A stretch of 64,000 bases of DNA from Mobula hypostoma (lineage: Eukaryota), in the NCBI RefSeq assembly GCF_963921235.1, contig NC_086097.1:91266001-91330000 (forward strand), written 5' to 3'. The position numbers and the translations under genes are program-made. Positions 7,493-64,000 of this stretch are shown here, piece by piece (within the stretch, counting starts at the first letter, position 1; every line of letters starts with the position of its first letter). The notes under the pieces were generated by a model. The model made no database searches and was not told where the DNA came from. It saw only the letters and a list, made by a program, of their open reading frames with translations.

Positions 7493-8670
7493 ATGGATGT
7501 CGCCGAGGTGGAGCCGTGGTGTTTCTCCATGGGGTTACCAGTAAGTAATGCAAGCGTGTCGAGTGGGGTAGATATTCGTACTCCCAATGAATTGTTAATT
7601 CGACTTTTAAGTACTGTTAAAGTTGTTGGCAAAGTTACTATTGCAGGATGGAGGCTTGACAAAATGGCAATCACAGACCTCATTTTACTGTAGACTAGCA
7701 CTGACATAATGGCAGTAGCACTGCCTGCTACTGTTGGTGCCACAGGGGAGTCGGGGCCATGGACTGTCCATACTGCCAGAGAGGAGGGGAGTGTAGCGGA
7801 GCGGGCCAAATCAGAAGTCGAATTTCCCGTAACTGGGGGTGGAAACTTCAAAGACAGGTTTCTATTGTTTCTGAGGAATGAGAGGAATGAGTGGTCAGAT
7901 TTGGAATGTCTAATTAGTCCCCGTCCCCCAGTGAAGAGCGAGAGTTCTGAGTTGACATCAGCCCTTATGTCTCTGGTGAATAAGTTGCCCAGTTCACAGG
8001 CAGAGGGTCCCCACTGGAAGCTAAGAATATTCTCTGGAATTACGCCCACCCCCGAGGGGGAAGAGGAGCATGAGACTTGGGTGGAGCAGACCTCTCAGTT
8101 GCTAGATGGGTGGCAGTGCTCGGATGATATAAAGCGACAGAGGTTGGTTGAGAGTTTGAGGGGGCAGGCTGCTGAAGTGGTGAAAGCTGTGAAGTCCTGG
8201 TACCCACTAGCCAAAGCTGCCGATTACATAGAGCATTGGAGAATGCATTTGGCACGAAAGGGAGCCCAATAGAGCTCATGGCAGGGTTTCAGAACATGTG
8301 GCAGGAAAAGGGGGAGAAGCTTTCTGCTTACATTTTTCAACGAGAGAGGCAGCTAGGTTGCTTGCGATGCAGAGGGGTCATTCAAGCAGCTGAAGTGGAT
8401 CAGTTAAGAATAGACCAGATAGCGAAGGGTGCCCAGTCCCAGGACCTGATTGCTTGGGGCCTCCGACTGTCTTGTAAGACACACCCCCATCTCTCTTTTG
8501 TTGAACTGATCAGAGAGGTATGGGAGGAGGAGAACACATTGGAGGCACAGGAAGGCTCTGTCATCAGGGTACAGTCCTTGGTAGTAGCCCCTTGTGGTGA
8601 AGTGACCACAGCTATCCCAACCCGGGGGTGGGGGTGGTAAAGGAGATTGTGGCAGAGTTGAGAACTGAGA
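7493..8670 (+). pseudogene. PNMA-like (paraneoplastic Ma-type) Gypsy gag, with stops and frameshifts
   Basis: KLRIFSGITPTPEGEEEHETWVEQT..KRQRLVESLRGQA and QEKGEKLSAYI motifs split over ORFs 7493, 7709 and 8236. Confidence 0.85.
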
Positions 8671-8869
8671 TGTCCCGGATCTTATCAGTAGGCGAGCAAG
8701 CAAGCAGGATGGCAGTGATTTTCAGGAACGCTGCGAAGAGGGAGGTCACTTTCAGGCAGGGGATGCCCCTGGTGCATCGGTTCCTGGTGACAGTAATGTC
8801 TAGCGTCCTGGTGAGACAAGCCAAGGAGAACCCCTCTGTAAAGAGGAACAAGTTGACCACTGAGTTGTT

Positions 8870-11780
8870 CAACTTCAGGGACTCCCCGGTTCCTGCGTAT
8901 TGGAAGAGGAGGTTGATAGAGAAGATGTTGAAGCTGGAAGGTGTCTTTTCCACTGACGAGTTTGATGTTGGTTGTTCCAAAAAGTACTCGTCACACTATC
9001 CTGGTGACAGAGAACACCCCATTCAGAGAGAGGTCGCAGCGACTGGCCCCTGCAGAGGTGGAGGATGTTCGGCAGCATTTGTGCAAGTTGAAGGAAGCTG
9101 GGATCATCACCAAGTCCTGAAGCCCCTATGCATCTACAATAGTAGTGGCCTGAAAGAAGAAAGGGAAGGTACAGATGTGTGTGGACTATGGGACTCTGAA
9201 CAGGTGTACTGTCCCCGACCAGTATACGATCCTGAGGATTGAAGACACTCTGGTCAGTCTGAATGGTGCTAAGTGGTTCCGTGTGCTGGACTTGAGGAGT
9301 GGGTATTACTGGATCCCCATGAGTGAGGCTGACAAAAAGAAGACCACATTTATATGTCCACTGGGTTTCTTCCAGTTCGAAAGGATGCCCCGGGGCATAT
9401 CGGGAGCCCCTGCAACCTGTCCAGCAGGTCATGGACAAAGCGGCGGGGGATATGAACTTGCCTGAGGTATTGGTGTATCTGGATGACCTCATAGTATTTT
9501 GGTTCACCTTGGAAGTACATGAAACGAGGCTACTGAATGTGCTGGGCCACCTGACAGCTGAAGGGTTAAAACTTTCCCTGGACAACTGCTAGATCTGCAA
9601 GACATCTGTTAGCTATATTGGCACATAGGCTCACGGATGGAGTAGTTACAGATCCATCTAAGATAGAGGTGGTGATCACCTGGAGAAGACACCAGACTGT
9701 GAGAGCTTCCCGCTCGTTCCTCGGGTTCTGTGGTTACTGAGGGGCTACGCAAAAGTGAGTCACCAGCTGAATCAGCTTCTGTGTGGTTACCCTCCCTTGG
9801 GGAAGAAAGGGAGGACCACAAAAGGAGAGGAGTGTAAAGAATATCTTAGCCCTTCAGAGCCTCTTGGACTGAGGTGGGATGCAAAGTGTGAAAAGGCCTT
9901 TCAGTCACTGAGGGAGATGCTGACCCAGGCGCCTGTGCTGGCTTTTTCAGACTCCTAATTGCCGTATGTACTGCATATGGATGCCAGCAGGGAGGGCTTA
10001 AGGGGTGCCCTGTATGAGGATCAGAGCACTGGGTTGAGACCTGTTGTGTTTGTCAGCTGGAGTCTGTCGCCCTCTGAGGAAAACTATCCCACGCACAAGC
10101 TGGAGTTTCTGTTGTTGAAATGGGCGGTGGTGGACAAACTGAGTGACTACTTCTATGGTGCCAAGTTTGAGGTGAGGACGGATAGCAATCCCCTAACTTA
10201 TATTCTGACCTCAGTGAAATTGGATACCACAGGCCATTGGTAGTTGGCAGCGTTGTCTGCCTATGATTTCAGCCTGAAGTACCGGCCAGGAAGCAGGAAC
10301 TTTGATGCTGATGCTTTGTCCTGACTTGAGCATGAGGGACTGGACAGGGACGAGGAGTGAGAGAGCATTCCTGCCCCAGGGGTGAAGGCCATGTGTCAGT
10401 TTTCCATCACAGTGAAGCCAAACAGAAAGCAGGGGTAGGATCAAGCAGTAGATCAATTGGGAGCTTCAAATGGCACCATTCCACAAGTGTACCCTGATGA
10501 CTCCTCTGAAGACAAACCAGTTACTGGAATTGAGTCCTGGGGAAGTGGCAGCTGCTCAGCGAGATGACCCAGGTTTCAGTACCGTTTAGTCAGCGGTCGA
10601 AAAGGGAAACATGGCTCAGGCAGAGAAGTCGAAACAGATGCAGTTCCTCCATTACTAAGAAAATGGCCCTGGTTGCAGTTGAGGAACCAGATTCTATACC
10701 AGGTCACGTCACCTCCAGGCCGAACTCGGCGTTCCCAGTTGGTTCTGCCAGAGAAGTATTGGAGGATTGTGTTGAAGTCACTTCATGATGATTCTGGACA
10801 TTTGGGGGTTGAAAAGACCGATGGATTGCTCAGAGACTGGTTTTACTGGCCCTGAATGAAGCCCAAGGTCGAAGAACACTGCAAGACGTGCATTCGATGC
10901 ATACAGAGGAAGACACTGCCTATGCGGGCAGCTCCCTTGACCCACTTGCAGAGTGTGGGGCCCCTGGACCGGGTGTGTATGGATTTCCTGTCAATAGAGC
11001 CAGATGCCAGCAACATGGCGAATGTCTTAGTCATCACAGACCACGACACCAGATATGCACAGGCTTTCCCTACCAAGGACCAGAGGATGTCCACTGTGGC
11101 AAAAGTGTTATGGGAGAAGTATTTCATTTATTATGGCCTCCCCAGTTGGATACATAGTGATCAGAGATGGGATTTCGAGAGCAGGGTCATCCATGAGTTC
11201 CTGAGCATGCTTGGAGTTGAGAAGTCGAGGACTACTCCCTATCATCCACACGGTGATCCCAGCCCGAGATGTTTAATCGGACCTTGCTAGACATGCTCAG
11301 GACCCTGGATATCAGCAGGAATAGCAGGTAGAGTCAACATATTGGACATCTAGTCCACTAATACAACTGTACCCGAAATGAAGCTACTGGGTACTCGCCA
11401 TATTATCTGATGTTTGGGCGCGAGGCGAGGTTGCCCATTGACCTTTGTTTTGGGACTGACAAGGTCAATCTGTCACTGAAGACTCATCTGTATTATGTGT
11501 CTGATATGAGAATGAGCTGAAAAAGGCTTATAAACTAGCTGGGGCCGCAGCTACCAAGCAGGGTCAAGGAAATAAAAGGAGGTATGATCAAAAGGTGAGG
11601 CACTCCCAACTCCTGCCGGAAGACAGAGTCCTCATAAGAAACTTGGGGCTAACTGGAAAGTGTAAGTTGGCCGACTGCTGGGCAGCCACACCCTATGTGG
11701 TGGAGAGTCTGTTGCCAAACATACCAGTTTCCCGGGTGAAACAAAAGGATGAGAATGGGCCTGTCAAGATTCTCCATTGG
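8870..11780 (+). pseudogene. Gypsy pol (RT, RNase H, integrase), multiply disrupted
   Basis: MCVDY..LDLRSGY..FERMP; YLDD at 9476-9487; RNase H LHMDASREGL and NYPTHKLEFL; integrase LHDDSGHLG, CKTCIRC, CMDF, HSDQ, TTPYHP. Confidence 0.92.
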
Positions 11781-12395
11781 AACCACCCTCAGCCTCTGGG
11801 ACCCAGAGCCCGAGCTGGAGCCTACACCTAGTAAGAGGACTCTGCGGTGGCGGGGGGGAGGGTGGGAACTGAAGGACCAACAGCAGGGGAGACTAAGCTG
11901 GGCCTCGCCCCCGAGAGGGATAGTGATTCGGAGGATGAGGACATGGAGGTGTGGTATAGGCTGCCTTTTGCTAACTCTCCACTGATTGAGGAAGAGACTC
12001 CCAGCACTTCTCACGCTGAGTCAGGTGAAATCAGAGGGCTTTTGGTGGACAGCCCAGGTTGCAGCGGGACCCTGCAAGTGATGAAGCAGGGCTTAGCCAG
12101 GGGACAGAGTGGTCAGAGTTGCAGGTAGGCACGAGTGATAGGCCAGGGGTGACATCGCCAAGTAGACCAGAAGTATCCCCAGTAGTGCTGGAACATGAAG
12201 AGGTAGATGAAGGGGAATGGAGGTCACAGAGACCACCGGATAGGCTGGCCTATGTAGCACTGGGGGAACTGTGTGTGGCTCCTACCATTTTGGGGAGCTC
12301 TGTCACTGTCTTTGATACCTGGGTTGAACTTTGTGCTTTGCAGGAAGGGTTGGCGAATTATCTCAAAGTCATGAGAGCATGACTAAAGTTTGGTT

Positions 12396-12405
12396 GGGGG
12401 GAGAG
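12396..12405 (+). promoter_or_regulatory. Polypurine tract
   Basis: GGGGGGAGAG directly before the TGTAAC that starts the 3' LTR. Confidence 0.85.
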
Positions 12406-14979: not shown

Positions 14980-16520
14980 CCTCTGCATTTAATACTTCAG
15001 TAATATTTGAGTAATCTTATACATATATTGGCTGATTAAACATTCTTGTTCATTTAAATAATTAATTACCAGTTATATAAATATATAGGTGAATTGTATA
15101 CATCATAAGTGTGTGCATCACTTCATGTAAATACAAACTAAGACTTGCATCTTTTGGCCTTTGAATTAGTTTTATGATTTGAAGCTACTAAACATAACAG
15201 GGGTGATGAGGCATTTTTAAAACAAACCCAAGATGGTTACTGACCTGTACAGTGAGAAATCAGAAATAGCTGGCTATATCAGAAAGATAGATGTGTTCAA
15301 TTGATCAACAGATAGCTGGCTCATGTGTACTGAGCTAATTGTACAGAATTTTGAAGCAAATGAAATAGCCGATGAGAAACCACTACCAATTTTACTGAGT
15401 GCATTGGATTTAAAGGCATACAGTTTGCCGTGAGGTTTAACTGCTCCAATCAAACCAGCAGAAATGAGCTTTGCTGATATTGTGAAGGTAATGCAGAAAC
15501 ATTTAGAATCAAAACTACTGTTGATTGCAGAATGCTTTAAGTTTCATAAGTGAAATCAAAAGGATGAAGAGTCCATTTCAGCATAAGTGGCTGAATTAAT
15601 GAGATTATTTGAGCATTGGCAGTTCAATAATGGGCTTAATGATGCACTGAGAGATCACTTAGTTTGTGGAATCTTACATGAAAGAATTCAAAATGGCTCC
15701 CAACTGAAGCACATCTTATACTTAAAAGAATAGTTGAAATTGCTGTATCAATGGAATCAGCAAACATAAACACAATTGAGATGCAGTCAGGAAAAAAAGT
15801 GAGCATGAAAAAAATAAACAGAAACTGGCCTGGCTGAACAAATTTTGTTACCGTTGTGGCAGGGGCTCACATTTACCAGACCAATGCAGATTTAAAGGCA
15901 AAACTTGCAGAAAATGTAAGAAAGTAGGACACATAGAGAGATCATGTTGGGCAGACAAAATAAATGGACTGCTCAGGAACGTGAAAAGGATAAAAGGTCA
16001 AGTTGTAGTTTCATAAAGAGCACTAATCTACATGCTGTGGATGAAAGATCTGATAATGCAGAGATTATCCTTGAGATCTAGCTTTGAGATTTAACACGTG
16101 AAAACTAACAAAAGCCAAACTATATGGCTTTCATCAGTAGTGAATGGCAAATTGATTAAAATGGAATTGGACACTGGCTTGGCTGCTTCAGTCATTCCAC
16201 AAAATGAGTTTGAATGGCATTTCAAAGATACTGAACTGAAGCCTGCAGATACCCAACCAAGAACTTTTACTGGAGAAAAGATCATTCCTGTGGGAATGAC
16301 ATTTGTAACAGAGAAATATAACCGCCAACAAGCCACATTGAGCTTGTATGTGGTAAAAATAGGAGGACCAGCTTTTCTAGGGTGTGATTGGCTGAGATAA
16401 TTACAACTTGATTGAAGATCCATCCACGTTTTTAATGCCACATCCCCTGCAATTAAGCCAACTGAAAGCAAATTAAGAAAGGTACTGGATGATCCCAAAA
16501 CTGTCTCCATGCTGTATATT
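14980..16520 (+). mobile_element. Gypsy (K02A2.6-like) remnant: 5' LTR, PBS, gag with two CCHC knuckles, protease; 3' truncated
   Basis: LTR ends ACATAACA at 15199; PBS-like GGGTGATGAGG; CYRCGRGSHLPDQC and CRKCKKVGHIERSC at 15847-15948; MELDTG protease motif; homologous to 61201-64000. Confidence 0.85.
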
Positions 16521-26700: not shown

Positions 26701-29700
26701 GTGAACACTCCATTCCATTTGCCATTTCTTTGTCCATTCTCCTAGTCTGTCTAAGTCCTTCTGTAGCCTCTTTACTTCCTCAAAACTACCTGCTCCTCCA
26801 GCTATCTTCATATCATCTGCAAACCTTGCAGCAAAGCGATCAATTCCATCATCCAAATCATTGACATATAATATAAATAGAATCAGTCTCAACACAGACC
26901 CCTGGGGAACACCACCAGTCACTGGCAGCCAGTTAGAGAAGGCTCCCTTTATTCCCACACTGCCTTCTGTCAATCAACCTCTGCTTATCCATGCTAGAAT
27001 CTTTCCTGTAATACCATGATGAGCTCATAGCTTGTTAAGCAGCCTCATGTGTAGCACCTTGTCAAAGGCCTTCTGAAAATCCAAGTACACAACATCAACC
27101 AATTCTCCTTTGTCTATCCTGCTTGTTCAAAGAATTCCAACAGATTTGCCAGGCAAGATTTTCTCTTGAGGAAGCCATGCTGACTATGAACTATTTTATC
27201 ATGTGCCTCCAAGTACACTGAGACTTCATTGATAATAATCGACTTCAACACCTTCCCAAGCACCAAGGTCAGACTAACTATTCTATAGTTTCCATTCTTC
27301 TGCCTTTCTCCCTTCTTGAAGAGTGGAGTGATATTTGCAATTTTCCAGTCCTCCAGAACTATTCCAGATCTCGTGATTCTTGAAAGATCATTACTAATGC
27401 CTCCACAATCTCTTCAGCCACCTCTTTCAGAACCCTGGGGAGTACACCATCTGGTCCAGGTGACTTATCTACCTTCATATCTTTCAGTTTCCCAAGAACC
27501 TTCTCTCTAGTAATGGTAGCTTCACACATTTCATGCCCCCTGACATCTGGAACTTCCACCATACTGCTAGTGTCTTCCACAGTGAAGACTGAAGCAAAAT
27601 ACTTATTCAGTTCGCCCACCATTTCATTGTCCCCCATTACTCCCTCTCTAGCATCATTTTCCAGTGGTCCAATGTCCACTCTTGCCTCTCTTTTACAATA
27701 CATGTATCTGAAGAAACTTTTGGTATACTCTTAATATTATTGGCTAGTTTACTTTCGTATTCCATCTTTACCTTCTTAATGACTTTTTAGTTGCCTTCTG
27801 TTGGTTTTTAAAAGCTTCCTAATCCTCTAAATTTCCACTAACCTTTGCTCTATTATATTCCCCCTCTTTGGCTTTTATGTTGGCTTTGATCTCTCTTGGG
27901 GCGGAATGGAGGGGAGGAGAAGATGGCAGCGTGACGCAGCGAGCACGGCCATTCCAAATGATATCGTATGTGTTAATTAGGATGCCGTGCACAATCCTGA
28001 TTTGATGGAGACAGCCGTGAGAAGCACAGAGGAACACCTGGAGAAACTTCTGAAATGCCTGCTTTGCTGCCGCTGCTACTGCGCAATCGAGAATCTCCAG
28101 AGGGGAAGGCCCCAAATCCTCGGCTTTGCCTATTGCCTGTTGCTGGGGCCCCGGGGTCAAAGCGCTCAGCGGAGATGGTGCTCGGTGCTCGGTGTCAGAG
28201 GGCTGGTTGGAGGCTCGGAGTTTTCGGACGGACTCAAGAGTCAGCTGTGGTCGGGGTGCTTCCAGAGTGCTGCATCGGTAAGTTTGCGACGCTGGAAGGT
28301 CATGGCAGGAAGAGCTGTTTTTTTTAATTCCTTCCACCATCTGCATGATTTGATGGGACTTTCGAGAGACTTTGAGACTTTTTACCATGCCCATAGTTTG
28401 TTCTTCATCAAATTACGGTATTGCTTTGCATTGTTGTAACTATGTTACAATTATGTGGTTTTTGTCAGTTTTTCAGTCAGTTTGTCTTGTGTTTCTGCGC
28501 TATCATTCTGGAGAAACATTGTATCATTTCTTAATGCATGCATTACTAAATGACAATAAAAGAGGACTGTGTGTCCTCATAATCTAATCTTGCTAGCCAG
28601 GGTTGTGTCATCTTTCCTTCAGAATACTTCTTCCTCTTTAAATTGTATATATCCTGTGCGTCCTGAATTGTTTCCAGAAATTCCAGCCACTGCTGCTCGG
28701 CCGTCATCCCTGCCATTGTTCTATTCCAATCAATTCTCTCCACTCCTCTCTTACGCTGCTGTAATTCCCTTTACTCAACTGTAATACTGATAGACCTGAC
28801 TTTAGCTTCTCCTCAAATTTCACGGTGAATTTGATCATATTATGATCACTTTCCCTGAGGATTCTTCTACCTTAAGCTCTCTGATGAATTCTGGTTCACT
28901 GCACAACAACTAATCCAGAATAGCTAATCTTCTAGTGGGCTCAACCATGAACTGCTCTAAAAAGCCATCTCGCAGACACTCTAGAAATTCCCCCTCCTGT
29001 AATCCAGCACAACCTGATTTCCCAATGTACCTGCATGTTGAAGTCTCCTATGACTATTGTAACATTGCCCTTTTTGCATGTATTTTCTATCTCCTGTTGT
29101 AATTTCTAGGCTATCTCTTTACTACTGTTTGGGGGTCTGTACACAACTCCCATCAGGGTGTTTTTATCCTTGCAGTTCCTTAGCTCTAACCACAATGATT
29201 CAATACTTTCTGACCTTATGTCACCTCTTTCTAACAGTTTGATTTCATTTTTTACCAACAGAGCAATACACCCCTTCTGCCTTCCTGCATCTGCTTTTGA
29301 TACAACGTTTATCTGCGGACAGCTATAATCTTGCAGCCATGGTTCCATGATGCCTACAACATCATACCTTCCAACCTGTGCTTCAAGTCCACCTACCTTA
29401 TTCCGAGTACTGCGCGCATTCAGATAAAACACCTTTAGTCCTGTATTCAACCTTTTCAGTCTTGTCGCACCATGCTCAACCTTTTGTTTCCTGACTTTGT
29501 CTGAGGTTTTACCAACATCTGCCTCCACAGTCACTCCATTAACTGTTCGGGCACTCTGGTTCCCATCCCCTTGCAACTCTAGTTTAAAACCCACCTTGCA
29601 GCATTAGCAAACCTTCCCACTAGGATATTAGTCCCTCTCCTGTTCGGGTGCAAACTGTCCCTTCCGTACACATCCCACTTTCCCTAGAAGAGAGCCCAAT

Positions 29701-32915: not shown

Positions 32916-34846
32916 TCTAACTCAAAGGACTTAACTTGCTTAAGTCACCTAGGCCAGATGATCTATATCCCGGAGTCCTGAGAGAGGTTGCTGAAGAGAT
33001 AACGAATGCATTGGTCATGATCTTTCCAGAATCACTTGACTCTGGCATGGTCCTGGAGGACTGCAAGATTACAAATGTCACTCCATTCTTTAAGAAGAGA
33101 GGAACGCTAAAGAAAGGAAATTATAGGACAGTTAGCCTAATCTCAAGGGTTGGGAAATTGTTGGAGTCTATTATTAAGTATGAGGTTTTGGGGTACTTGG
33201 AGACTAATGATAAAATAAGTTAAAGTCAGCATGGTTTCTATGAAGAAAGATCTTACCTGATAAATCTGTTAGAGTTCTTTGAAGAAGTAACAAGCTGGGT
33301 GGACAAAGCAAAGGCAGTGGATGTCATTTTCTTGGATTTTTAGAAGGCACTTGATAAGGTGCCACATATGAGGCTCCTTAACAAGATAAAATTCTATGGC
33401 GTTACAGGAAAAATACTGACACAGATAGTGGAATGGCTGACAGGCAGGAGGCAGTGAGTGGGAATAAAGGGGGCTGTTTCTAGTTGGCTGCCGGTGACTA
33501 GTGGTATTCCTCAGGGGTCAGTATTGGGACTGCTGCTTTTCACATTGTTTATCAATAATTTAGGTAATGGAATTGATGGTTTTGTAACAAAGTTTGCAGA
33601 TGATACAAAGATAGGTGGAGGGGTAGGTAGTGCTGAGGAAGCAATGCAATTGCAGTAGGACTTGGACAAATTGGAAAAATGGGCAAAAATGTGGTAGATA
33701 GAATACAGTGTTGGGAAATGTATGATAATGCCTTTTGGTAAAAGGAAAAATAGTGCAGACTATTATCTAAATGAGGAGAAGGTTAAAACATCAGAGGTGC
33801 AGAGGGACTTAAGAGACCTCATGCAGGACTTCCAGAAGGTTAATTTACAGATTGAGTCTGTGGTAAAGAAGGCAAATGCAATGTTGCCATTTATTTCAAG
33901 GGGATTATGAAAGCAAGGAGATAATGCTGAGGCTTTTTAAGACATTAGTCAGGCTGCACTTGGAGTAATGTCAACAGTTTTGGGCCCCACATTTCAGAAA
34001 GGATGTGCTGTCATTGGAGAGAATTCAGAGGCAGTTCACAAGAATGATTCCAGGAATGAAGGGGTTAAATATGAAGAGCATTTGGTAATTTTGTACTCAC
34101 TGAAATTTAGAAGAATGCGGGGGATCTCATTGAAACCGACTGAATGTTGAAAGCACTAGTTAGGGTGGATGTGAAGAGGTTGTTTCAAATGGTGGGGGTA
34201 TCCAGAACTAGAGGGCACAGCCTCAAAATTGAGGGATGACCCTTTAGAACAGGGGTAAGGAGGAATTTTTGTAGCCAGCGAGTAGTAAATCTGTGGAATG
34301 CTCTGCCACTGACTGCGGTGGAGGCCATGTCTGTGCATATACTTAAGGTGGAAGTTGAGTATTTCCTGATTGGTCAGGGCATCAAAGTATATGGTGGGAA
34401 TGCAGGTGTATGGGGTTGAGTGGGATACAAGATTGGCCATGAAGGAATGCCGGAGCAGACTCGATGGGTTGAATGGCGTAATTCTGCTCTTATGTCTTAT
34501 GGGTACTCTGCACTGGCTCCTTAATCCCTTTCCCCTTCCTGACTCTCACCAAGTCTCCTGTATCCTGCACCTTGGGTATAACTACCTCTCTATATGCCCT
34601 ATCTATCACTCCGTCAACCTCCCGAATGATCCAGAGTTCATCCAGTTCCAGCTCCAACTCCTTTAACGCAATTTGTTAGAAGCTGCAGCTGGATGCACTT
34701 CTCGCAATTGTAGTGGTCAGGGATTTCAGAGGTCTTCGATTATGATTTAAATGAATTGGTGTGGACTGTTTCTTGTTTGTTGACAGCATCTTGCAGTATT
34801 TCAAGTGCCTGAATACATTCAGCTGATGTTGATGTGTAAAATTAGG

Positions 34847-36480: not shown

Positions 36481-36564
36481 TGAAGATCTTTAAGCTCTCT
36501 TTAAGAAGGAAAACTTAGGTCTATAGGAGTGAGGCAACACAGCAGTGGGGTCACAGACCATATA

Positions 36565-38165
36565 CATAGAAACATAGAAACATGGAAAATAGGTGCAGGA
36601 GTAGGCCATTCGGCCCTTCGAGCCTGCACCACCATTTATTATGATCATGGCTGATCCTCCAACTCAGAACCCCGCCCCAGCCTTCCCTTCATACCCCCTG
36701 ACCCCCGTAGCCACAAGGGCCATATCTAACTCCCTCTTAAATATAGCCAATGAACTGGCCTCAACTGTTTCCTGTCCACAGATTCACCACTCTCTGTGTG
36801 AAGAAGTTTTTCCTAATCTCGGTCCTAAAAGGCTTCCCCTCTATCCTCAAACTGTGGCCCCTCGTTCTGGACTTCACCAACATCGGGAACAATCTTCCTG
36901 CATCTAGCCTGTCCAATCCCTTTAGGATCTTATACGTTTCAATCAGATCCCCCCTCAATCTTCTAAATTCCAACGAGTACAAGCCCAGTTCATCCAGTCT
37001 TTCTTCATATGAAAGTCCTGCCATCCCAAGAATCAATCTGGTGAACCTTCTTTGTACTCCCTCTATGGCAAGGATGTCTTTCCTCAGATTAGGGGACCAA
37101 AACTGCACACAATACTCCAGGTGTGGTCTCACCAAGGCCTTGTACAACTGCAATAGTACCTCCCTGCTCCTGTACTCGAATCCTCTCGCTATAAATGCCA
37201 GCATACCATTCGCCTTTTTCACCGCCTGCTGTACCTGCATGCCCACTTTTAATGACTGGTGTATAATGACACCCAGGTCTCGTTGCACCTCCCCCTTTCC
37301 TAATCGGCCACCATTCAGATAATAATCTGTTTTCCTATTTTTGCCACCAAAGTGGATAACTTCACATTTATCCACATTAAATTGGATCTGCCATGAATTT
37401 GCCCACTCACCCAACCTATCCAAGTCACCCTGCATCCTCTTAGCATCCTCCTCACAGCTAACACTGCCACCCAGCTTCGTGTCATCCGCAAACTTGGAGT
37501 TGCTGCATTTAATTCCCTCATCCAAGTCATTAATATATATTGTAAACAACTGGGGTCCCAGCACTGAGCCTTGCGGTGCCCCACTAGTCACCGCCTGCCA
37601 TTCTGAAAAGGTCCTGTTTATTCCCACTCTTTGCTTCCTGTCTGCTAACCAATTCTCCACCCACACCAATACCTTACCCCCAATACCGTGTGCTTTAAGT
37701 TTGCACACTAATCTCCTGTGTGGGACCTTGTCAAAAGCCTTTTGAAAATCCAAATATACCACATCCACTGGTTCTCCCCTATCCACTCTACTAGTTACAT
37801 CCTCAAAAAATTCTATGAGATTCGTCAGACATGATTTTCCTTTCACAAATCCATGCTGACTTTGTCCGATCATTTCACCGCTTTCCAAATGTGCTGTTAT
37901 CACATCCTTGATAACTGACTCCAGCAGTTTCCCCACCACCGACATTAGGCTAACCGGTCTATAATTCCCCGGTTTCTCTCTCCCTCCTTTTTTAAAAAGT
38001 GGAGTTACATTAGCCACCCTTCAATCCTCAGGAACTAGTCCAGAATCTAACGAGTTTTGAAAAATTATCACCAACGCATCCACCACCTCCCGGGCTACCT
38101 CCCCAAGCACTCTAGGATGCAGACCATCTGACCCTGGGAATTTATCTGCCTTCAATCCCTTCAAT
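36565..38165 (-). mobile_element. Young 5'-truncated CR1 LINE
   Basis: (TTTCTATG)n tail; uninterrupted 418-aa RT frame. Confidence 0.95.
36761..38017 (-). pseudogene. CR1 ORF2 reverse transcriptase fragment (418 aa open; no endonuclease or promoter)
   Basis: NYRPVSL, QHGF, YLDFQKAFDKV, PQGSVLGP, FADD. The frame continues upstream past a TGA at 38021-38023. Confidence 0.9.
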
Positions 38166-40236
38166 TGGCATTGGTGGAGGTATTTTCTGCCTTGAAGCAA
38201 ATCATGGTGAATAAATCTCTTGCAGATATCCCACCCTGCAAAAACTCATTTCAGGTAGGTAGCACCACCACCCCATCCCCCGCAACCCCATATCACCCCC
38301 CCATAGACGTCCAAGGGTGTATGTATACAGGACATTTGATTATGAAGGAACACAACAATTTATTTGATCACATATTGAAACTATTTACACGCACACACAT
38401 ATATTCCTTGTTGAGTATTTTGTTGGCAGTCTCAAAGCTAATAGCTAAATGCTAGTACAAATACAGTAGCTTTTCTATTTCTTTTGCAAACTTTTCTTGT
38501 ATTGTGATATGGCTTGCTTGGCAGATTTAAGCATTTTGCCGGAAGTCTCAACCTCATAGCAGTCTGTGTCAATGAATTTGTTAATTTTGCGAGACATCAG
38601 ATTCACAAGATTCACAATTATATTATATTATCATGGAGTAGTTTTCTCCCTCTCCCTCTCCATTGTATATAATTTGTGGGCATCAGGGAGCTGCATCAGT
38701 ATGTGGGAGACTTCTGGGAGAAGTGGAATGTCTGCTTTTGGATCTGACGAGGTGTTCCCTCTGACCCTGTTGGAGGCTAGTGCAGAAATTGCAAGGGCCC
38801 TAGCAGAGATAATTAAAATGTCCTTAGCCATGAGTGAAGAGCCAGAGGACTGGAGGATATCTAACATTTTTCCTTTAAGAAAGGTTAAACTGGGAAATTA
38901 TAAAATGATGAACCTGACATCAGTTATGGGAAAGTTATTGGAGGGTTTTCTAAGGGACCAGATGTATAAGTACTTGGATGGACAAGGACTGATTAGGGAT
39001 GGTCAGCATGGCTTCGTGCATGGTAGGTCATGTCTAATTAATCTTGTAGAGTTTTTTGAGGAAGCTACCACGAAAATTGATAGAAGGCAAGGCAGTGGAT
39101 GTTGTCAACATTGATTTTAGTAAATCTTTTGATAAGGTCACATGGAGGAGTCTAGTCAAGAAGGTTCAGTTGGTTACCATTCAGGATGAGGTAGTAAATT
39201 GGATGAGATATTGACTTCACAGGAGAAGGCAGAGTACAGTTGTATATGTTTGCCTCTCCGACGGGAGGCCTGTGCCCAGTGGTGTTCTGCAGGGATCATT
39301 GCTGGGTCTATTTCTCATCACAATCAATGACCTGGATGATAACGTAGTAAATTGGATTAGCATATATGTGGATGGCACCAATGTTGGGATAGTGAACAGC
39401 AAGGAAGGCTATCAAAGCTTGATGTGGATCTGGACCAGCTGGAAAATGAGCTGAAAAAATTGGCAGATGAAATTTAATGCAGGCAAGTGTGAGGTTTGCA
39501 CTTTGGAAGGACAAATCAGGGTAGGACTTGCACAGTGAATGGTAGGGCAATGAGGAGTGGGGTAGGACAGAGGGATCTGAAAATAGAGATTCATCATTCC
39601 TTGAAGGTGGCATCATAGGTAGATAGGATAGTAAAGAAAGCTTTTGTCACATTTTGGTTTCCTTAAGGGAAAATCTTGCCTGACGATATTGTTGGAATTC
39701 CTTGAGGAGATTACACATAGGATAGATAAAGAGGATGCAGTGGATGTTGTACATTTGGACTTTCAGAAGGCCTTTGGTAAGCAGCCTCATGCGTGGCACC
39801 TTGTCAACTTAAGAGCCCATGGTATTACAGAAAAGTTATTAACATGGTTAGAGCATTGGCTGATTGGTAGGAGGCGGTGAGTGGGAATAAAGGGATCCTT
39901 GTCTGGTTGGCTGACAGTGACTGGTAGTATACCACAGGAGTCAGTGTTGGGCCTGCATTTTATACCGTATATCAATGATTTAGATGATGGAATAGATGGC
40001 TTTGCTGTCAAGTTTGCAAATGATATGAAGATTAGTGGAGGGGCAGGTTGAGGAAGGACTTGGACAGATTAGGAGAATAGGCAAGAAAGTGGCAATTGAA
40101 ATACAATGTTGCAAAATACATCGTCATGCACTTTGGAAGTAGAAATAAATGTGCAGACTATTTTCTAAACAGGGAGAAAATCCAAGAATATGAGATACAG
40201 AGGGACTTGGGAGTCCTTGTGCAGAATACCCTAAAG

Positions 40237-49527: not shown

Positions 49528-51270
49528 GTGAGGCCTCAGTTGGTCAGGGCTGACCATGGACATTGCATTGTAGCTGTCTGGATACACAGGCCTGGGCAGT
49601 ACGATACGGAGAACAAACTGTTGCCCACCTGGCAAGCTCCCCCTCTCCATGCATCTGAAGAACCCAAAGGAACGACAGAGACTGATACAGTCTGGCACCA
49701 GCAGGAGTTACCAGTCAGCATTGAACTCAACGTAGGACTGCCTTAGAACTCCAGGTCCAGTTTTTTCCCTCAGGGTTTTTTCCCAAAGCCTTCCCCATGT
49801 GGGGGGATAGCGAAGGTTTGAGATCAGAATTTTCCTTCTCCTTGATCGGGGGTCCCCAACCTTTTTTGCATTGCAGACCGGTTTAATATTGACAATATTC
49901 TTGCGGACCGGCCAACCGGGGGGGGGGGGGGGCGCGCGGAGTGGTGGAAAGGGTTGCCAACAGACAAGTGTAGCAGTCAGATACGTTGTGTTTACCCCGA
50001 GAAAGACTACCGTAACCATGAAGCCTTGCATGGGCACCAGTGTGCATGTATGTACGTGCCAATTTTTCTTTAAATGATAATATCGAATCGTTTTTGGCGA
50101 TTCTGTTCGGCGGGGGGTTGTTAATCACGACCGGAATATAGGTGATAAGTGCCTAATACACGCAATTTCATTTCTAAAAGGGTTTATCTAACGAATTTAA
50201 TATTAAACACACAGCGCATATTTTCCTCGCATGAATATAGTGATAAGTCAATTATCAGGGGAGGACAGGGGAGCATGAAGTAAGTGTTGAATGAACTTCC
50301 AGTAGAAATGGTAGAGGCAGGTTCGATATTATCATTTGAAGAAAAATTGGATATGTATATGGACAGGAAATAAATGGAGGGTTATGGGCTGAGTGCAGGT
50401 CGGTGGGACTAGGCGAGAGTAGCGTTCAGCACGGACTAGAAGGGCAGAGATGGCCTGTTTCCGTGCTGTAATTGTTATATGGTTATATAAGTCACTTATA
50501 GGTCAATAACATCATAACATTTTAAGTAATGTTTGGATATTAAACACACAGCGCATATTTTCCCCGTATGAACATATAAAATCATTGCAACGCTCCAATA
50601 TCGCTGAATCAGTGGGAGCCCTGGGCTTATTTCCCTTCAACAAGACGGTGCCATCGAGGGGTGATGGGAGACAGCGATACTCGAACGGGGTTCCTTATGT
50701 CCAGTCTATTCTGCAATTTTGTTGCATTCATTGCAGAAATACGTTGGAAATGGAAGCAATGTTTTCATGGCTATCTCAAGATATTTAGCCTTGACTTTGG
50801 TCCAGAATGCCGGCAGAGATGTTATGTCAAACATACTTTTCAGCCCGCCGTCATTTGCAAGCTCCAGGAGTTGATCCTTTTCCCGCGCTGACATGGATGA
50901 CGCGCGGGTAATGACCTCGCGTGTGTTCAAGCTCAACAGTGGCGGGACAGGGAATGAGGAAAAGTGCAGCTGACTCATATCGCCAAATCATATCGTTTCC
51001 TCGTGGCCCGGTAGCACATGCTTTGCGGCCTGGTGGTTGGGGACCGCTGTCCTAGATGAGCTGCCAATCATGACTGGTTTTAACGTGCCAGTATCCCACC
51101 GTTGTCCCTTCCCCTGTCAGTAGAAGAGGTGCCACTAGACTTAGTACTAAGCCACAGGTGAAGGCCAGGAGTTGGTTTGGCTATCAGAGGCGATTTGAGG
51201 CACACAACATTGGGAGCATTTAATAGGCAGTGGGAGTTTTTCCCCACTACCACCGCCCGGCTATAACAAC
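49528..51270 (-). mobile_element. RTE-like non-autonomous element split by a hAT insertion
   Basis: 49528-49846 plus 51058-51270 are the reverse complement of 59995-60583. Confidence 0.78.
49847..51049 (-). mobile_element. Non-autonomous hAT (Charlie/Buster-like) with a transposase C-terminal remnant
   Basis: TIRs CGGGGGTCCCCAACC / GGTTGGGGACCGCTG; TSD TCCTTGAT/TCCTAGAT; ORF 50706-50978 has DQLLELANDGGLKSMF..FW..LLPFPTY. Confidence 0.9.
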
Positions 51271-54319: not shown

Positions 54320-55380
54320 ATGGATTTCGCCTTCAGCTGAAATGAGACAATCTCTATCCTTGCTCTTGATGCTTGTTAAACAAGAAAAAGCTTGCTCACA
54401 CGTTAGAAATTGAAAACTGCAACAAAATGTTCATTGCTTTCTATGAATGGCAAGATACTCTTCTTTCACAGAAATCCAGAACTTATCCAGGGGCAGGTCA
54501 GTAAATCTCATCTTGATTGCATGATCAGAGTGCAAATTCTTCCTCTTTTCTCAAAGTCAAGTTCTCAGACAGAGCAGTAGATTCAGAGAAAGGATCCTCC
54601 TCCCAGTCATACACTTGTGTTGAAAGGGAGGAAAAATACTGTTCAGTTTTGTTCTGCAGTTCTTCCAGGTGGTTTTCAATAAGACTCAAGACTTTCTGAT
54701 ATCCTTCCTCACTCTCAAGCCCAAGCAGCAGTGGAAACATTTCCAAGATTTTCTTTTGCAGCATGATTTTTCCAAAGATTAATTTTCCTTTTAAATTCAA
54801 GAATCTTGTCATTTGAAGCTAAAACATTTTCTCCAGGACCTTGCAGAGTTTTGTTCAATTGGTTCATATGATGAAAAATGTCTGCCAAGTAGGCTAGATC
54901 CTGCAGCCATTCTTCATCTTCAAAGCACTTGGCAAAATCTGGCCTATTATCTCCTTGAAAGTACTTCTGCAATTCACCTTTCAGCTCAAACACTCTGTTG
55001 AGAACTTTTCCTTTGCCAAGCCGCCATATTTCTGTATGTAGCAGGAAATGAGATGCTCTTTGTCCAGGTTTTCACACAGTTTTTTAAACATTCTCGAGTG
55101 AACTGGTCTTACAGCGACTAAATAACTTGCTTCCCGATCCTATTACTGACTGTGACTTTATTTTCAAAAGCTTTAATCGGTTTGTTTTGAGATTCCAATA
55201 GTCGTTTAAAATAATCAGCTTTTTTATGTGTCGTATGGCTGTGATTTGTAGTTAAGTGTCTTTTTAATTTTGCGGGAGCCATTGTTACATTTGTAAGTTG
55301 TTTGCCACAGACTAGGCACAATGGCATAGGACAACTTGGGTCACCAGTCCATGTAAAACCCATTGATAAGTAGCTTTCAT
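54320..55380 (-). pseudogene. Buster-type hAT transposase remnant with an internal deletion
   Basis: YLSMGFTWTG..PLCLVCG..MAPAKLKRHLTTNH; LAYLADIFHHMNQLNKTLQG; C-terminal dimerisation-region remnant. Confidence 0.88.
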
Positions 55381-56442
55381 TGTAAAGATATGGGACCGGT
55401 TGATTACTTTAGTCCCACCCACTGTTTTTGTCTCCAGACCCAGAAGAGGCTGGTGGACTTCTTGTGGGGCAACAGGAGACATTGGGTCTTTGCCTGGGTC
55501 CTGAGTCTTTCAATCGCGGAGGGCAGTCAGTCATTGGTGAGTGTGCACACCCAGCTGGTGGCTCTCTGCCTCAGGACCTGTAGAGATACCTGTATAGCGA
55601 CCACTCTCCGCGATGGCATTCGCTGGTGATCACTTTCTCTGCTGGAGACACTGCCTGCAGGAGGACATGTGGCTTCTAGCGGGCAGCATCAGCTGCTGCC
55701 GCTTTGAGGGAACCGAGAGCTGTTGAGGGATTGGGGTCTAGTCTCATCCAGACAGGGTGCTCCTGTGCCAGTGGGGAGACGGTACTCTAACTGCGAGGAG
55801 GACTGTTCCACATCCTATCATGATGAGGGAGCTTGGGGAAGTGGAGAGTTTCCAGCAGCACCACCACCTGATGAGCTGGGAGTTCATCAATGTTATATCA
55901 GGCAATACCGTATAACAAATCTTTAAGCAAGTTCACTGGCACCCTGTCCACCTGTCCATTCTGTGGCTGGGAGGAGTCAGTGTATTATGTTTATATGGAG
56001 TGTGAGAGGTTGCAGCCCCTGTTTGAGTATCTAACGGGGCTGTTGCTCAGGTCCTGGTTGCACTGCAGCCCCGCGCTCCTTATATACGGGCACCCAGTAT
56101 GGAAGGGGGTGGATCACGAGGAGGTTCTACTGCTGGGCTTGCTCTTGGGCCTGGCCAAGATGGCCATTCACGGGTCTAGGCAGTCGAAAGACAAGGGTTC
56201 TGCCAGGGCTGACTGCCCACCCCTCTTCCGAGGATACGTTCATGCGCGGCTGTTCTTGGAGAGGGAGCATGCGGTCACAATGGGGGACTTCCGAGAGCGG
56301 TGGGCCCACTGGGGAATTGACTGTTTTATAGACAGTAAGAATCATATTAAAATTTGAATTTATTCACTGTCTTGTAAATACTTATTGTTTCTACTTCGTC
56401 TATTCGTTGTGTAAATAAACTTCTATAGTTTTGTAAAAAAAA
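55381..56442 (+). mobile_element. Tx1/L1-clade LINE 3' fragment
   Basis: ORF 55890-56357 has CPFCGWEESVYYVYMECERLQPLF..LLGLAKMAI..FRERW; AATAAA and an A-run. Confidence 0.8.
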
Positions 56443-61200: not shown

Positions 61201-64000
61201 TGTAGTGTATTTAATATTTCAGTAATATTGTAAATGTGTCATTTGATTAAGCATTTTATTTGTTTACATAATTCATCATCAGTTATATGTAAGAAGTACG
61301 TGAATAGCGTATGTCATTATGCCACTACGTCACGGGTGAGCGCCTCACTAAACTAAAAACTCAGTAGACAAATATCCCAGCTCCCGTGCTTTTCTTTTGA
61401 TTAGTACCTGAGAGACAAAACATAAGAGTGGTGATGAGGAAATTTTAAAGCAAACCCTAGACAACTACCAACCTGTTGAAGTGCAGCACGTTTTTCTTCA
61501 GAAGCGTAGAGAGAAGCTCAAGTTTTTTAAAAAGGCAGAAAATTAACAAGCAACAAGTACAGCCATGTGTGTACACAGACAGTACCAGGTGATAATAATA
61601 ATAAATTTAAAAAAACAGAAATGGTTGATAGATGTGGTCTATTGCACAACAAGTAACTGGGTGATGTATACAAAATGAATTGAGCAGTATTTTGAAGCAA
61701 GTGAAACAGCTAACGAAAAATGAATGCCAGTGTTGCTGAATGCAAAGGGTGGAAAAGCATTCTTTGCTTAGAAGCTTAACTGCTCCAACCAAACCAGCCA
61801 AAATGAACTTTGTTAATATTGTCAATGTAATGCAGGAATATTTAGAACCAAAGCCATTGCTGATTGCAGAATGCTTTAGGTTTCATATTAAAGGGAAGGG
61901 GAGTCCATTTCACCCTACTTGGCTGAATTGAACAAATTATCCAAGCATTGTCAGTTAAGTGAAGGGCTTAATGATGCATTGAAAGATCACTTAATTGTGG
62001 AATCTTACATGAAAGCATCCAAAATGGCTCCTAACTGAAGCACAACTCACATTTTAAAGAGCAGTTGAAATCACTAATTAATTAAAATGGAATTGGACAC
62101 TGGACACTGGCTTGGCTGTTTCTGTCATTCCATAAAAAGAGCATTTCAAAGATACTGAATTGAAGCTTGCAGATATCCAACTAAGAAATTATACTGGAAG
62201 GTAGTGGAGATTCCTGTGGGAATGACATTCGTAACAGTGAGATACAACAACCAACAAGCCATATTGGACTTGTATGTGGTAAGAACAGGAGGACCAGCAT
62301 TGTGGGGACATGATTGGCTGAGGCAACTACAACTTGATTGGCTATCCATCCACCATTTTAGATTATGAGAACACTCAGTCCTCTTTTATTGTCATTTAGA
62401 AATGCATACATGCATTAAGAAATGATACAATGTTTCTCCAGATTGATATCACAGAAAACATGACAAACCAAAGACCAACACTGACAGAACCACATAATAT
62501 TAACATATAGTTACAGCAGTGCAAAGCAATACCATAATTTGATGAAGAACAAACCATGGGCACGGTAAATAAAGTCTCAAAAGTCCCCGAGTCAATCAAC
62601 TCCCGAGTCCCCGATAGCGGTGTCAAAAGGGTGAAACTCCCTGCCATAAACCTCCAGGCACCGTCAACTTGCCGATGCCTTGGAAGTAGCCAACCACAGC
62701 CGACGCTGAGTCCATCCGTCCGAAAACTTCGAGCTTCCAACCAGCCTCTCCGATACAGCCTCTCAAATGCCATTCTCTGCCAAGCACCTTCGACCTCGCC
62801 CCAGCCGCTGAAACACACAAAGCCGAGGATTACGGGGCCTTCTGCTCCAGAGATTCTGGTTACCACACAGTAGCAGCGGTAATGAAGCGGGCATTTCAGA
62901 AGTTTTCCAGATGGTCCTCTGTACTCTTACATCTGTCTCCATCAAATCAGAATTGTGCACGGTCCTCTACTTGACAGACAACAGACATCATCACCGAAGT
63001 GGCTGCGTGCACTGCCATCACGCCGCCATCTTCTCCTCCTCCATCTTCTTAAAATTTGCTTGCCATATTCCCCGTAATAGAGTCAACTGAAAGTGAATTA
63101 AGAAAGGTACTGGATGATACCGTAGCTTCTCCATGCTGTACATTGGAAAGCTCAAACATATCAAGGATAAAAGAGTGTTAAATGAAAATGCCACACCCAA
63201 GTTTTACAAGGCCCGTCTGGTTCCTTATACTATCCGTGATAAAGTAGCCAGTGGGCTAGTTCATATGGTGGCTGAAGGAATTCCCTCCAAGGTCGAGTGG
63301 TGCCCATGGGCAACACCAGCCAGGATCTGTGGTGATTTTAAGGTCACCATCAACCCAGTACCCAGAGGGATCAAGGATCAGATCCCTCTGCCCAGGATAG
63401 AGGATATCTTTGCAAACCTCTCAGGAAAGAAATACTTCGGCAAATTGAGGCCTATATACAGATGGAGATGAAAGAAGAGTCCAGAATGTTTCTCACCATA
63501 AGCACTCACAAAGGTCTTTATTGCTATAATAGGCATATTCTTGGAGAAGCATCTGCACCTGCACTCTGGCAGAAAGCTATTGTCCAGGTGCTGCAAGGCT
63601 GCCCGGGCACTCAGTGTCACCTGGATGATATCATTGTTACTGGTAAGGATGACAAGAAAAATCTACAAAATCTCAAAACACTGTTAAAAGGATTAGAAGA
63701 TTATGGGCTCAGAACACAATGCAACTGTGTGGAATCTTTAAACCATTCATCACCTACTGTGATCACACCATCAACACACAAATGTGCTGAGAAAATTCAA
63801 GCAGTGGTGGATGCCCCAAGGCCAAGGGACATGTCACAGTTGCAGTTCTTTTTAGGATTTGTCAATTACTATACCAGGTTCCTGCCAAACTCGGCTTCTG
63901 TGCTCCACCTCTTGAACTCATTTCTACAGATCAGGAAGAAATGGCAATGGACAAAGCAGTGTGAGGTGGTTTTCCAGATGGCAAAGGAAATAATGAGGCC
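61201..64000 (+). mobile_element. Gypsy (K02A2.6-like) element: LTR 61201-61427, PBS, gag (internally deleted), PR, RT; runs off the window
   Basis: PBS TGGTGATGAGG at 61429-61439 (CpG-decayed tRNA-Ser type TGGCGACGAGG); LLRSLTAPTKP; RICGDFKVTINP; HLDD at 63618-63629. Confidence 0.88.
62358..63053 (-). mobile_element. Non-autonomous ~690-bp family, full-length copy inserted in the Gypsy element
   Basis: Minus-strand 5' GGAGGAGAAGATGGCGGCG and the same 3' tail; ATTT at both flanks. Confidence 0.88.

Follow-up and report, generated by a model that had tools for sequence, protein, structure and literature searches.

How a young LINE copy in the genome of Mobula hypostoma came to carry a dense patch of A-to-G (A>G) changes is the question raised by this locus. 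The window, i.e., the whole stretch of DNA that was analysed, is 64,000 nt long, and its features are listed in Table 1. A preliminary description of this DNA proposed that the patch is fossilised ADAR hyper-editing of LINE RNA, which was written into the germ line by retrotransposition and was perhaps linked to truncation of the copy.

Table 1 Features of the window (position 1 is its first base).
Feature	Position	Strand	Remarks
A>G patch	38072..38104	-	10/14 A's altered relative to the family majority; K>G, Q>R and I>V in ORF2, remaining codons silent
Young CR1-type LINE copy, 5'-truncated	36564..38166	-	Holds the 3' part of ORF2, the 3' UTR and the tail
5' truncation junction	38160..38172	-	Last element base 38166
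3' tail, short TTTCTATG-type repeats	36564..36590	-	Found in most of the 16 copies
Premature stop, TGG>TGA	38021..38023	-	Private to the window copy, outside the shared set
Older CR1 fragment	27359..27730	-	Comparator in the preliminary description; K retained at the site
Older CR1 fragment	32921..33223	+	Comparator in the preliminary description; R at the site
Decayed gag-pol-like frames	7600-12400	+	Presumably an LTR-type element (from motifs)
Fragments like DNA-transposon transposase	50700-51000 and 54500-55400	-	Likeness assumed from motifs
Two similar frames	15274-15543 and 61607-61882	-	Separated by 46 kb; probably two copies of a single repeat

The minus strand at 38107-38072 matches the sequence quoted in the preliminary description, and both older CR1 motifs cited there as comparators are present in the ORF list of the window. 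A degenerate patch motif has 11,171 matches genome-wide, and the first 100 listed comprise 96 pure A forms and four with one G; the A-rich source sequence that had been reconstructed without this information is exactly the family majority. Compared with this majority, the window patch contains 10 sense-strand A>G changes among its 14 A's in 33 nt (38104, 38103, 38099, 38091, 38090, 38087, 38086, 38084, 38075, and 38072), in agreement with the earlier estimate of up to about 10. No other change is present, so the mismatches are not of mixed types, and all 19 non-A positions equal the family majority. An APOBEC-type change does not fit, as had been argued, because the difference is A>G against an A majority, not G>A on the sense strand. 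At the family background A>G rate of 0.84% (755/89,995 A positions), the probability of at least 10 changes among 14 A's is 1.7e-18.

The neighbouring bases of the altered sites are also biased. Three of the four A's kept in the patch (38100, 38096, 38088, and 38079) follow a G, as had been noted from the letters alone, compared with 0/10 edited A's (Fisher p=0.011). A or T is found immediately 5' of 8/10 edited sites, and a G follows 5/10 edited versus 1/4 kept A's. One TAG, the triplet most favoured by ADAR, is left unedited in the patch. In PMC4365171, hyper-edited sites are described as depleted of G upstream and enriched for G downstream. As a sequence pattern, the dense A>G cluster with depleted 5' G and enriched 3' G agrees with the signature predicted for ADAR hyper-editing.

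The same G form is present at other loci. An exact 35-mer gave 12 matches, and 16 were obtained when up to three mismatches (<=3) were allowed, on 11 contigs; these 16 copies represent approximately 0.14% of the motif matches. Among 30 fetched loci, the G form and the A form were found in 15 each. Within the lineage, G is present in 16/16 copies at eight of the ten sites, in 15 at one, and in 14 at one, which is a new CpG. Probes forcing two G's with the other A's left free returned 13, 12, and 11 hits, all of which were full-set copies save one with the doublet alone and mixed changes elsewhere; intermediates with a partial G set did not turn up with these probes. The doublet-only hits L157 and L158 were rejected as edited copies because their changes are mixed. 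The G-rich version is therefore the consensus of a 16-copy sub-lineage but not of the family, and this status shifts the editing event back to a founder without removing it.

An assembly error, which the preliminary description had also considered, is contradicted by the 16 loci on 11 contigs and by an independent short-read contig carrying the G form. In the public run X1, a 79-nt contig matches 38054-38130 without any difference at a depth of 133.5, which does not equal copy number (6.9 is listed for a 697-nt contig of this run), and 8/16 copies are identical over the 77 bases matched by this contig. It supports the G form as such, the insertion junction of the window copy lying outside X1 coverage. 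Runs X3 and X17 are without coverage of the patch and X12 barely covers it, and such a coverage hole proves nothing.

The 16 copies have 16 different 5' ends, situated upstream of the patch at distances of 59 to 2770 nt, as well as distinct flanks and mostly a short-repeat tail. Numbered from the patch start, the alleles 104T (14/16 lineage copies vs 24/116 sampled family copies), 1250C (14/16 vs 27/113), and 1461G (11/16 vs 4/113, p=2e-9) mark the lineage. The window copy carries all three and differs by 1.0% from the majority of the lineage, in which 15 copies diverge 0.9-1.6% from their own majority. Diagnostic changes, flanks, and 5' ends all fit a subfamily retrotransposed from one source, with the exception of L043, described below. 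Because the same set is found in 16 copies that differ in 5' end and flanks but have a rare background haplotype in common, the editing likely happened once, in a source element. The window copy is a dead daughter with a premature stop, and the view that it is itself the edited molecule is not supported. Segmental duplication was rejected as the origin of the 16 copies because their flanks differ, and gene conversion alone was rejected as the mode of spread because they have a common rare background over about 3 kb.

L043, the 16th copy, is an older full-length element that lies 4.6% from the lineage majority. Its tract over the patch has the rare alleles 46C, 137A, and 293T in common with L044, located on the same contig at a distance of 727 kb, and this allele sharing points to gene conversion, with L044 as the probable donor of the patch in L043. 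L043 and L044 lie at G000:C12, 42.94 and 43.67 Mb, and L043 is without about 550 nt directly after the tract. At sites that are polymorphic in the family, the 16 copies show partial mosaicism. A patchwork of subfamily haplotypes extends throughout the family (L016-L030, L056-L155), with short mosaic tracts common in edited and unedited copies alike, which suggests frequent conversion or template switching. In another lineage copy, L051 (G000:C5:21075700-21085600), 9/26 rare changes outside the patch are A>G versus a background of 13.6%, possibly reflecting light further editing.

The proposed connection with truncation did not hold. All 39 other matches (39/39) in a search that scored the best 40 of 2194 candidates start at query base 35, which places the 5' truncation, and the patch lies 62-94 nt from this junction (38166), close to the 60-95 nt given originally. 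The 5' ends of edited and unedited copies are alike, with 2/16 and 6/100, respectively, falling within 100 nt of the patch (Mann-Whitney p=0.36), and the link therefore fails.

Four further copies carry A>G clusters of their own. L156 (G000:C5:70405978-70406870, +) is a stronger single example than the window patch, with 56 A>G among 60 rare changes over about 490 nt from its 5' junction. It was found by one of two sense A>G probes placed elsewhere in the element, the other of which gave 0 finds, and it is single-copy among the best 40 of 6567 candidates scored. It sits inside an older antisense CR1. Of its 145 A's, 56 are edited, and the edited fraction depends on the 5' neighbour (T 18/26, A 22/39, C 8/32, G 8/48; p=1.2e-4), whereas background A>G is flat at 0.43-0.56% across 5' neighbours. 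A or T thus lies 5' of 40/56 edited sites, and A's followed by G were edited more often than the others (21/46 vs 35/99). The background of L156, 1250C+1461G, is that of the 16 copies and is found in 3/113 sampled copies.

When L156 was used as a probe, 3/29 further copies were A>G-dominated and 26/29 were ordinary. These three, L164 (G000:C45, 71.265 Mb), L166 (G000:C52, 64.524 Mb), and L178 (G000:C55, 42.100 Mb), have A>G at 20/26, 35/39, and 23/32 of their rare changes, respectively, and their backgrounds differ from the 1250C+1461G of L156. They were selected for G's in common with the probe; outside the probe stretch, A>G accounts for 17/20 changes in L166 and 15/24 in L178 but for only 2/7 in L164. 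At probe-unshared sites, pooled over the three copies, A's after G were less often edited (9/161 vs 37/281, p=0.014) and A's before G more often (20/134 vs 26/308), and T was not the most favoured 5' neighbour (8/64 vs 19/119 for A). The tract of L156 begins at its own 5' junction, and the main clusters of the other three lie hundreds of bases inside the element. In L164, the edits form three clusters of about 30 nt (745-777, 953-983, and 1028-1059), the length of the window patch. L178 spans the patch, where its sole change is at the TAG site kept unedited by the 16 copies, which indicates that distinct events left distinct sets of changes. Sense A>G is the type of all five events, but the probes were designed for it, three having sought sense A>G and one T>C; the single antisense T>C control probe, a weak test of strand asymmetry, gave one hit, with mixed changes.

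Dense clusters of either A>G or T>C were present in 0/116 sampled copies of the unedited type over 290,723 aligned bases. For this sample, the 100 matches listed first on contig C1 were combined with 15 copies that resemble the window copy and with one neighbour. The A>G runs in these copies reached at most three changes per 40 nt and four per 100 nt, not above the G>A runs, and the strongest A>G excess in any single copy (p=0.009 among the 116) was not significant. The process is therefore rare, and, to judge from the sequences of the five events, it recurs in the family. The four further copies, which avoid 5' G, strengthen the supported part of the reading given in the preliminary description.

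The element has an open ORF2 frame of 1017 codons in the daughter copy L050, patch included, and therefore the source RNA had an open ORF2. In L044, which is near full length, ORF2 is broken into three pieces. L050 encodes Exo_endo_phos (102-288) and RVT_1 (578-792) domains, i.e., an APE-type endonuclease followed by a reverse transcriptase, as in CR1-type elements, and the closest solved relatives of its ORF2 are L1 ORF2p and R2. ORF1 of the element has a GDSL lipase/esterase domain. An esterase ORF1, a short-repeat 3' tail, and variable 5' truncation, which are CR1-type features, are all present, and the CR1 label denotes the assignment in the preliminary description together with these features. 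The patch is located just past the SPGPDG motif and ahead of the Pfam RT domain. By a hand count on the alignment with human L1 ORF2p, the residues opposite the K>G, Q>R, and I>V changes are Q482, E486, and L488, respectively, and none of the three recoded positions is therefore invariant between the element and the human protein. Because A>G cannot make a stop from a sense codon under the genetic code, ORF2 stays open with three substitutions. That ADAR recoded an autonomous vertebrate LINE, changing three ORF2 residues at once in an element that then gave rise to a subfamily through the activity of its own protein, is a tentative proposal, which we regard as possible rather than probable; unedited copies may instead have helped to mobilise the recoded RNA.

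RNA folding, suggested earlier as a way of finding a duplex partner, did not reveal one within the element. No intramolecular hairpin over the patch was found there, and the pairing of the patch with the rest of the element (-26.1 kcal/mol vs -33.5 +/- 5.0 for 40 random windows) was worse than that of 39/40 windows. Among the 16 copies, L054 alone has its patch covered by an antisense copy within about 10 kb, and its patch copy is a truncated daughter; four further 9.9-kb flanks of L044 and L050 contained no antisense partner. At L054 (G000:C55:4822100-4832000), an unedited near full-length copy stands head to head with the G-patch copy, about 1.1 kb apart, and its 5' end contains a tandem repeat with a unit of about 173 nt. 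ADAR-family deaminase-domain exons are present at six spliced loci of the genome; the same Pfam deaminase family also covers ADAT1 and ADAD. An intronless adenosine-deaminase-domain sequence with stops at G000:C22:101644608-101645562 is likely a processed pseudogene. Action of ADAR on the cDNA of a hybrid, a possibility raised in PMC12925331, predicts sense-strand T>C and does not fit.

We consider it probable that the shared patch goes back to one ADAR editing event on a LINE RNA, whose reverse-transcribed copy entered the germ line and likely served as a source element. The preliminary description is partly supported: the exclusive A>G changes, the sense strand, the ADAR-like neighbour bias, and the retrotransposed origin agree with it, while its view of the window copy as the edited molecule and the role of truncation are not supported. 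That the enzyme was ADAR, that the transcript formed a duplex with antisense CR1 RNA, and that one founder gave rise to the lineage and was later active are inferred. In the proposed pathway, a transcript of the 104T/1250C/1461G sub-lineage would pair locally with antisense CR1 RNA, which could be supplied by a family of over 11,000 near-identical copies. ADAR would then convert 10/14 adenosines to inosine, and reverse transcription would read the inosines as G and insert a long copy. This founder would be transcribed and give rise to at least 15 daughters via ordinary 5'-truncating retrotransposition, and the older element L043 would later acquire the patch by gene conversion, probably from L044.

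Several other explanations of the patch can be weighed against a single edit in the source RNA. ADAR may have made the edits in another copy or cDNA that was edited more widely, from which the patch passed into an existing source element as a short tract by gene conversion or template switching, so that the source itself would not derive from edited RNA; mosaicism extends throughout the family, L043 is itself an older element with a converted tract bearing the 46C, 137A, and 293T of L044, and the patch edges are sharp, with no shared A>G nearby. Nevertheless, no donor with a longer edited tract is present among the 16 hits, and the separate clusters of about 30 nt in L164 indicate that short patches arise without conversion, so this route is unlikely. 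A polymerase without any deaminase, misinserting G opposite T in second-strand synthesis during dATP shortage or through an error-prone enzyme, would likewise yield sense-strand A>G. Pol eta, for example, is an error-prone polymerase favouring WA sites, and A or T precedes 8/10 sites in the patch and 40/56 in L156; that a duplex partner was not found by folding of the element or, except at L054, in the flanks also agrees with such an origin. The density (10/14 in the patch, 56/145 in L156) and purity (56/60) are, however, far too high, as such polymerases give changes of far lower density and purity, both strands would need fixing from a heteroduplex, and the graded T>A>C>G preference of L156 and the pooled 3' G excess of the other three copies (20/134 vs 26/308) fit the published ADAR motif. 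We therefore regard a polymerase origin as very unlikely.

The same ten sites could also have been edited repeatedly in one source RNA, each of the 16 copies then being a separate event. Differences among the copies at some family polymorphisms would agree with this, as would the rare 1250C+1461G background of L156, which implies that RNA of this lineage may be edited more than once. Such mosaicism is family-wide, however, partial sets are absent both from the two-G probe hits and from the first 100 listed of the 11,171 matches, and each of the four other edited copies carries a set of its own, L178 differing at the patch itself; repeated editing is accordingly highly improbable. Least credible, to the point of being nearly negligible, is an assembly or sequencing artefact or ordinary subfamily divergence. 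The window junction does lie beyond X1 coverage and X3 and X17 miss the patch, but the 16 loci have private changes each, including CpG decay of the new G's, the independent run X1 matches exactly over 77 nt, and the identity of 19/19 non-A patch positions with the family majority speaks against ordinary divergence.

RNA editing is normally transient. Here, the edit set is fixed in DNA, the unedited source sequence is known from over 11,000 copies, and 16 later insertions are marked by it. If the tentative proposal of an autonomous recoded element is true, RNA editing would act again and again as a heritable source of mutation in LINE evolution while leaving reading frames open, a mirror of APOBEC editing. 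Counts could now address the frequency with which edited LINE RNA enters the germ line, the further jumping of edited copies, and the site preference of ADAR in the germ line. Scans of retroelement editing that use A>G merely as a control would miss a real class.

A search by title and start of abstract, with subscription papers mostly uncovered, found no paper describing fixed A>G clusters in LINE copies or a subfamily founded by an edited LINE. In a 2016 review (PMC4982230), a role of ADAR in retrotransposon subfamily evolution is called logical but undetermined, and its role in Alu subfamily evolution likewise undetermined. Genomic scans for edited retroelements have centred on G>A (PMC2873906 and PMC4866542), and the filter in PMC4866542 selects G-to-A over A-to-G.

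Published work offers several known systems for comparison with the patch. For chicken CR1 RNA, over 35,000 edited sites are reported, and elephant-shark brain RNA is hyper-edited (PMC5625713); the repeat class and the kind of cluster are the same as here, but at the RNA level, as RNA-versus-genome differences, with no write-back into DNA described in the excerpt. ADAR1 restriction of human LINE-1 (PMC5224506) likewise shows ADAR acting on LINE retrotransposition, but in an editing-independent manner, a cell assay having detected no edits across 2.5 kb of L1 RNA. A>G hypermutation in two avian retroviruses, covered in a review (PMC12925331), is similar in that clustered A>G changes in a retroelement are ascribed to ADAR and carried through reverse transcription; those were exogenous retroviruses in culture, whereas the present element is an endogenous non-LTR LINE whose changes are germ-line-fixed, lie in ORF2, and were later amplified. 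APOBEC editing of endogenous retrotransposons (PMC4866542 and PMC2873906) shares the one-directional, strand-biased deaminase cluster in an otherwise progenitor-like copy, but consists of G>A on the cDNA, often creating stops, in contrast to A>G on the RNA strand with the frame open. By analogy, the patch would work like retroviral ADAR hypermutation and mirror the APOBEC editing of retroelements.
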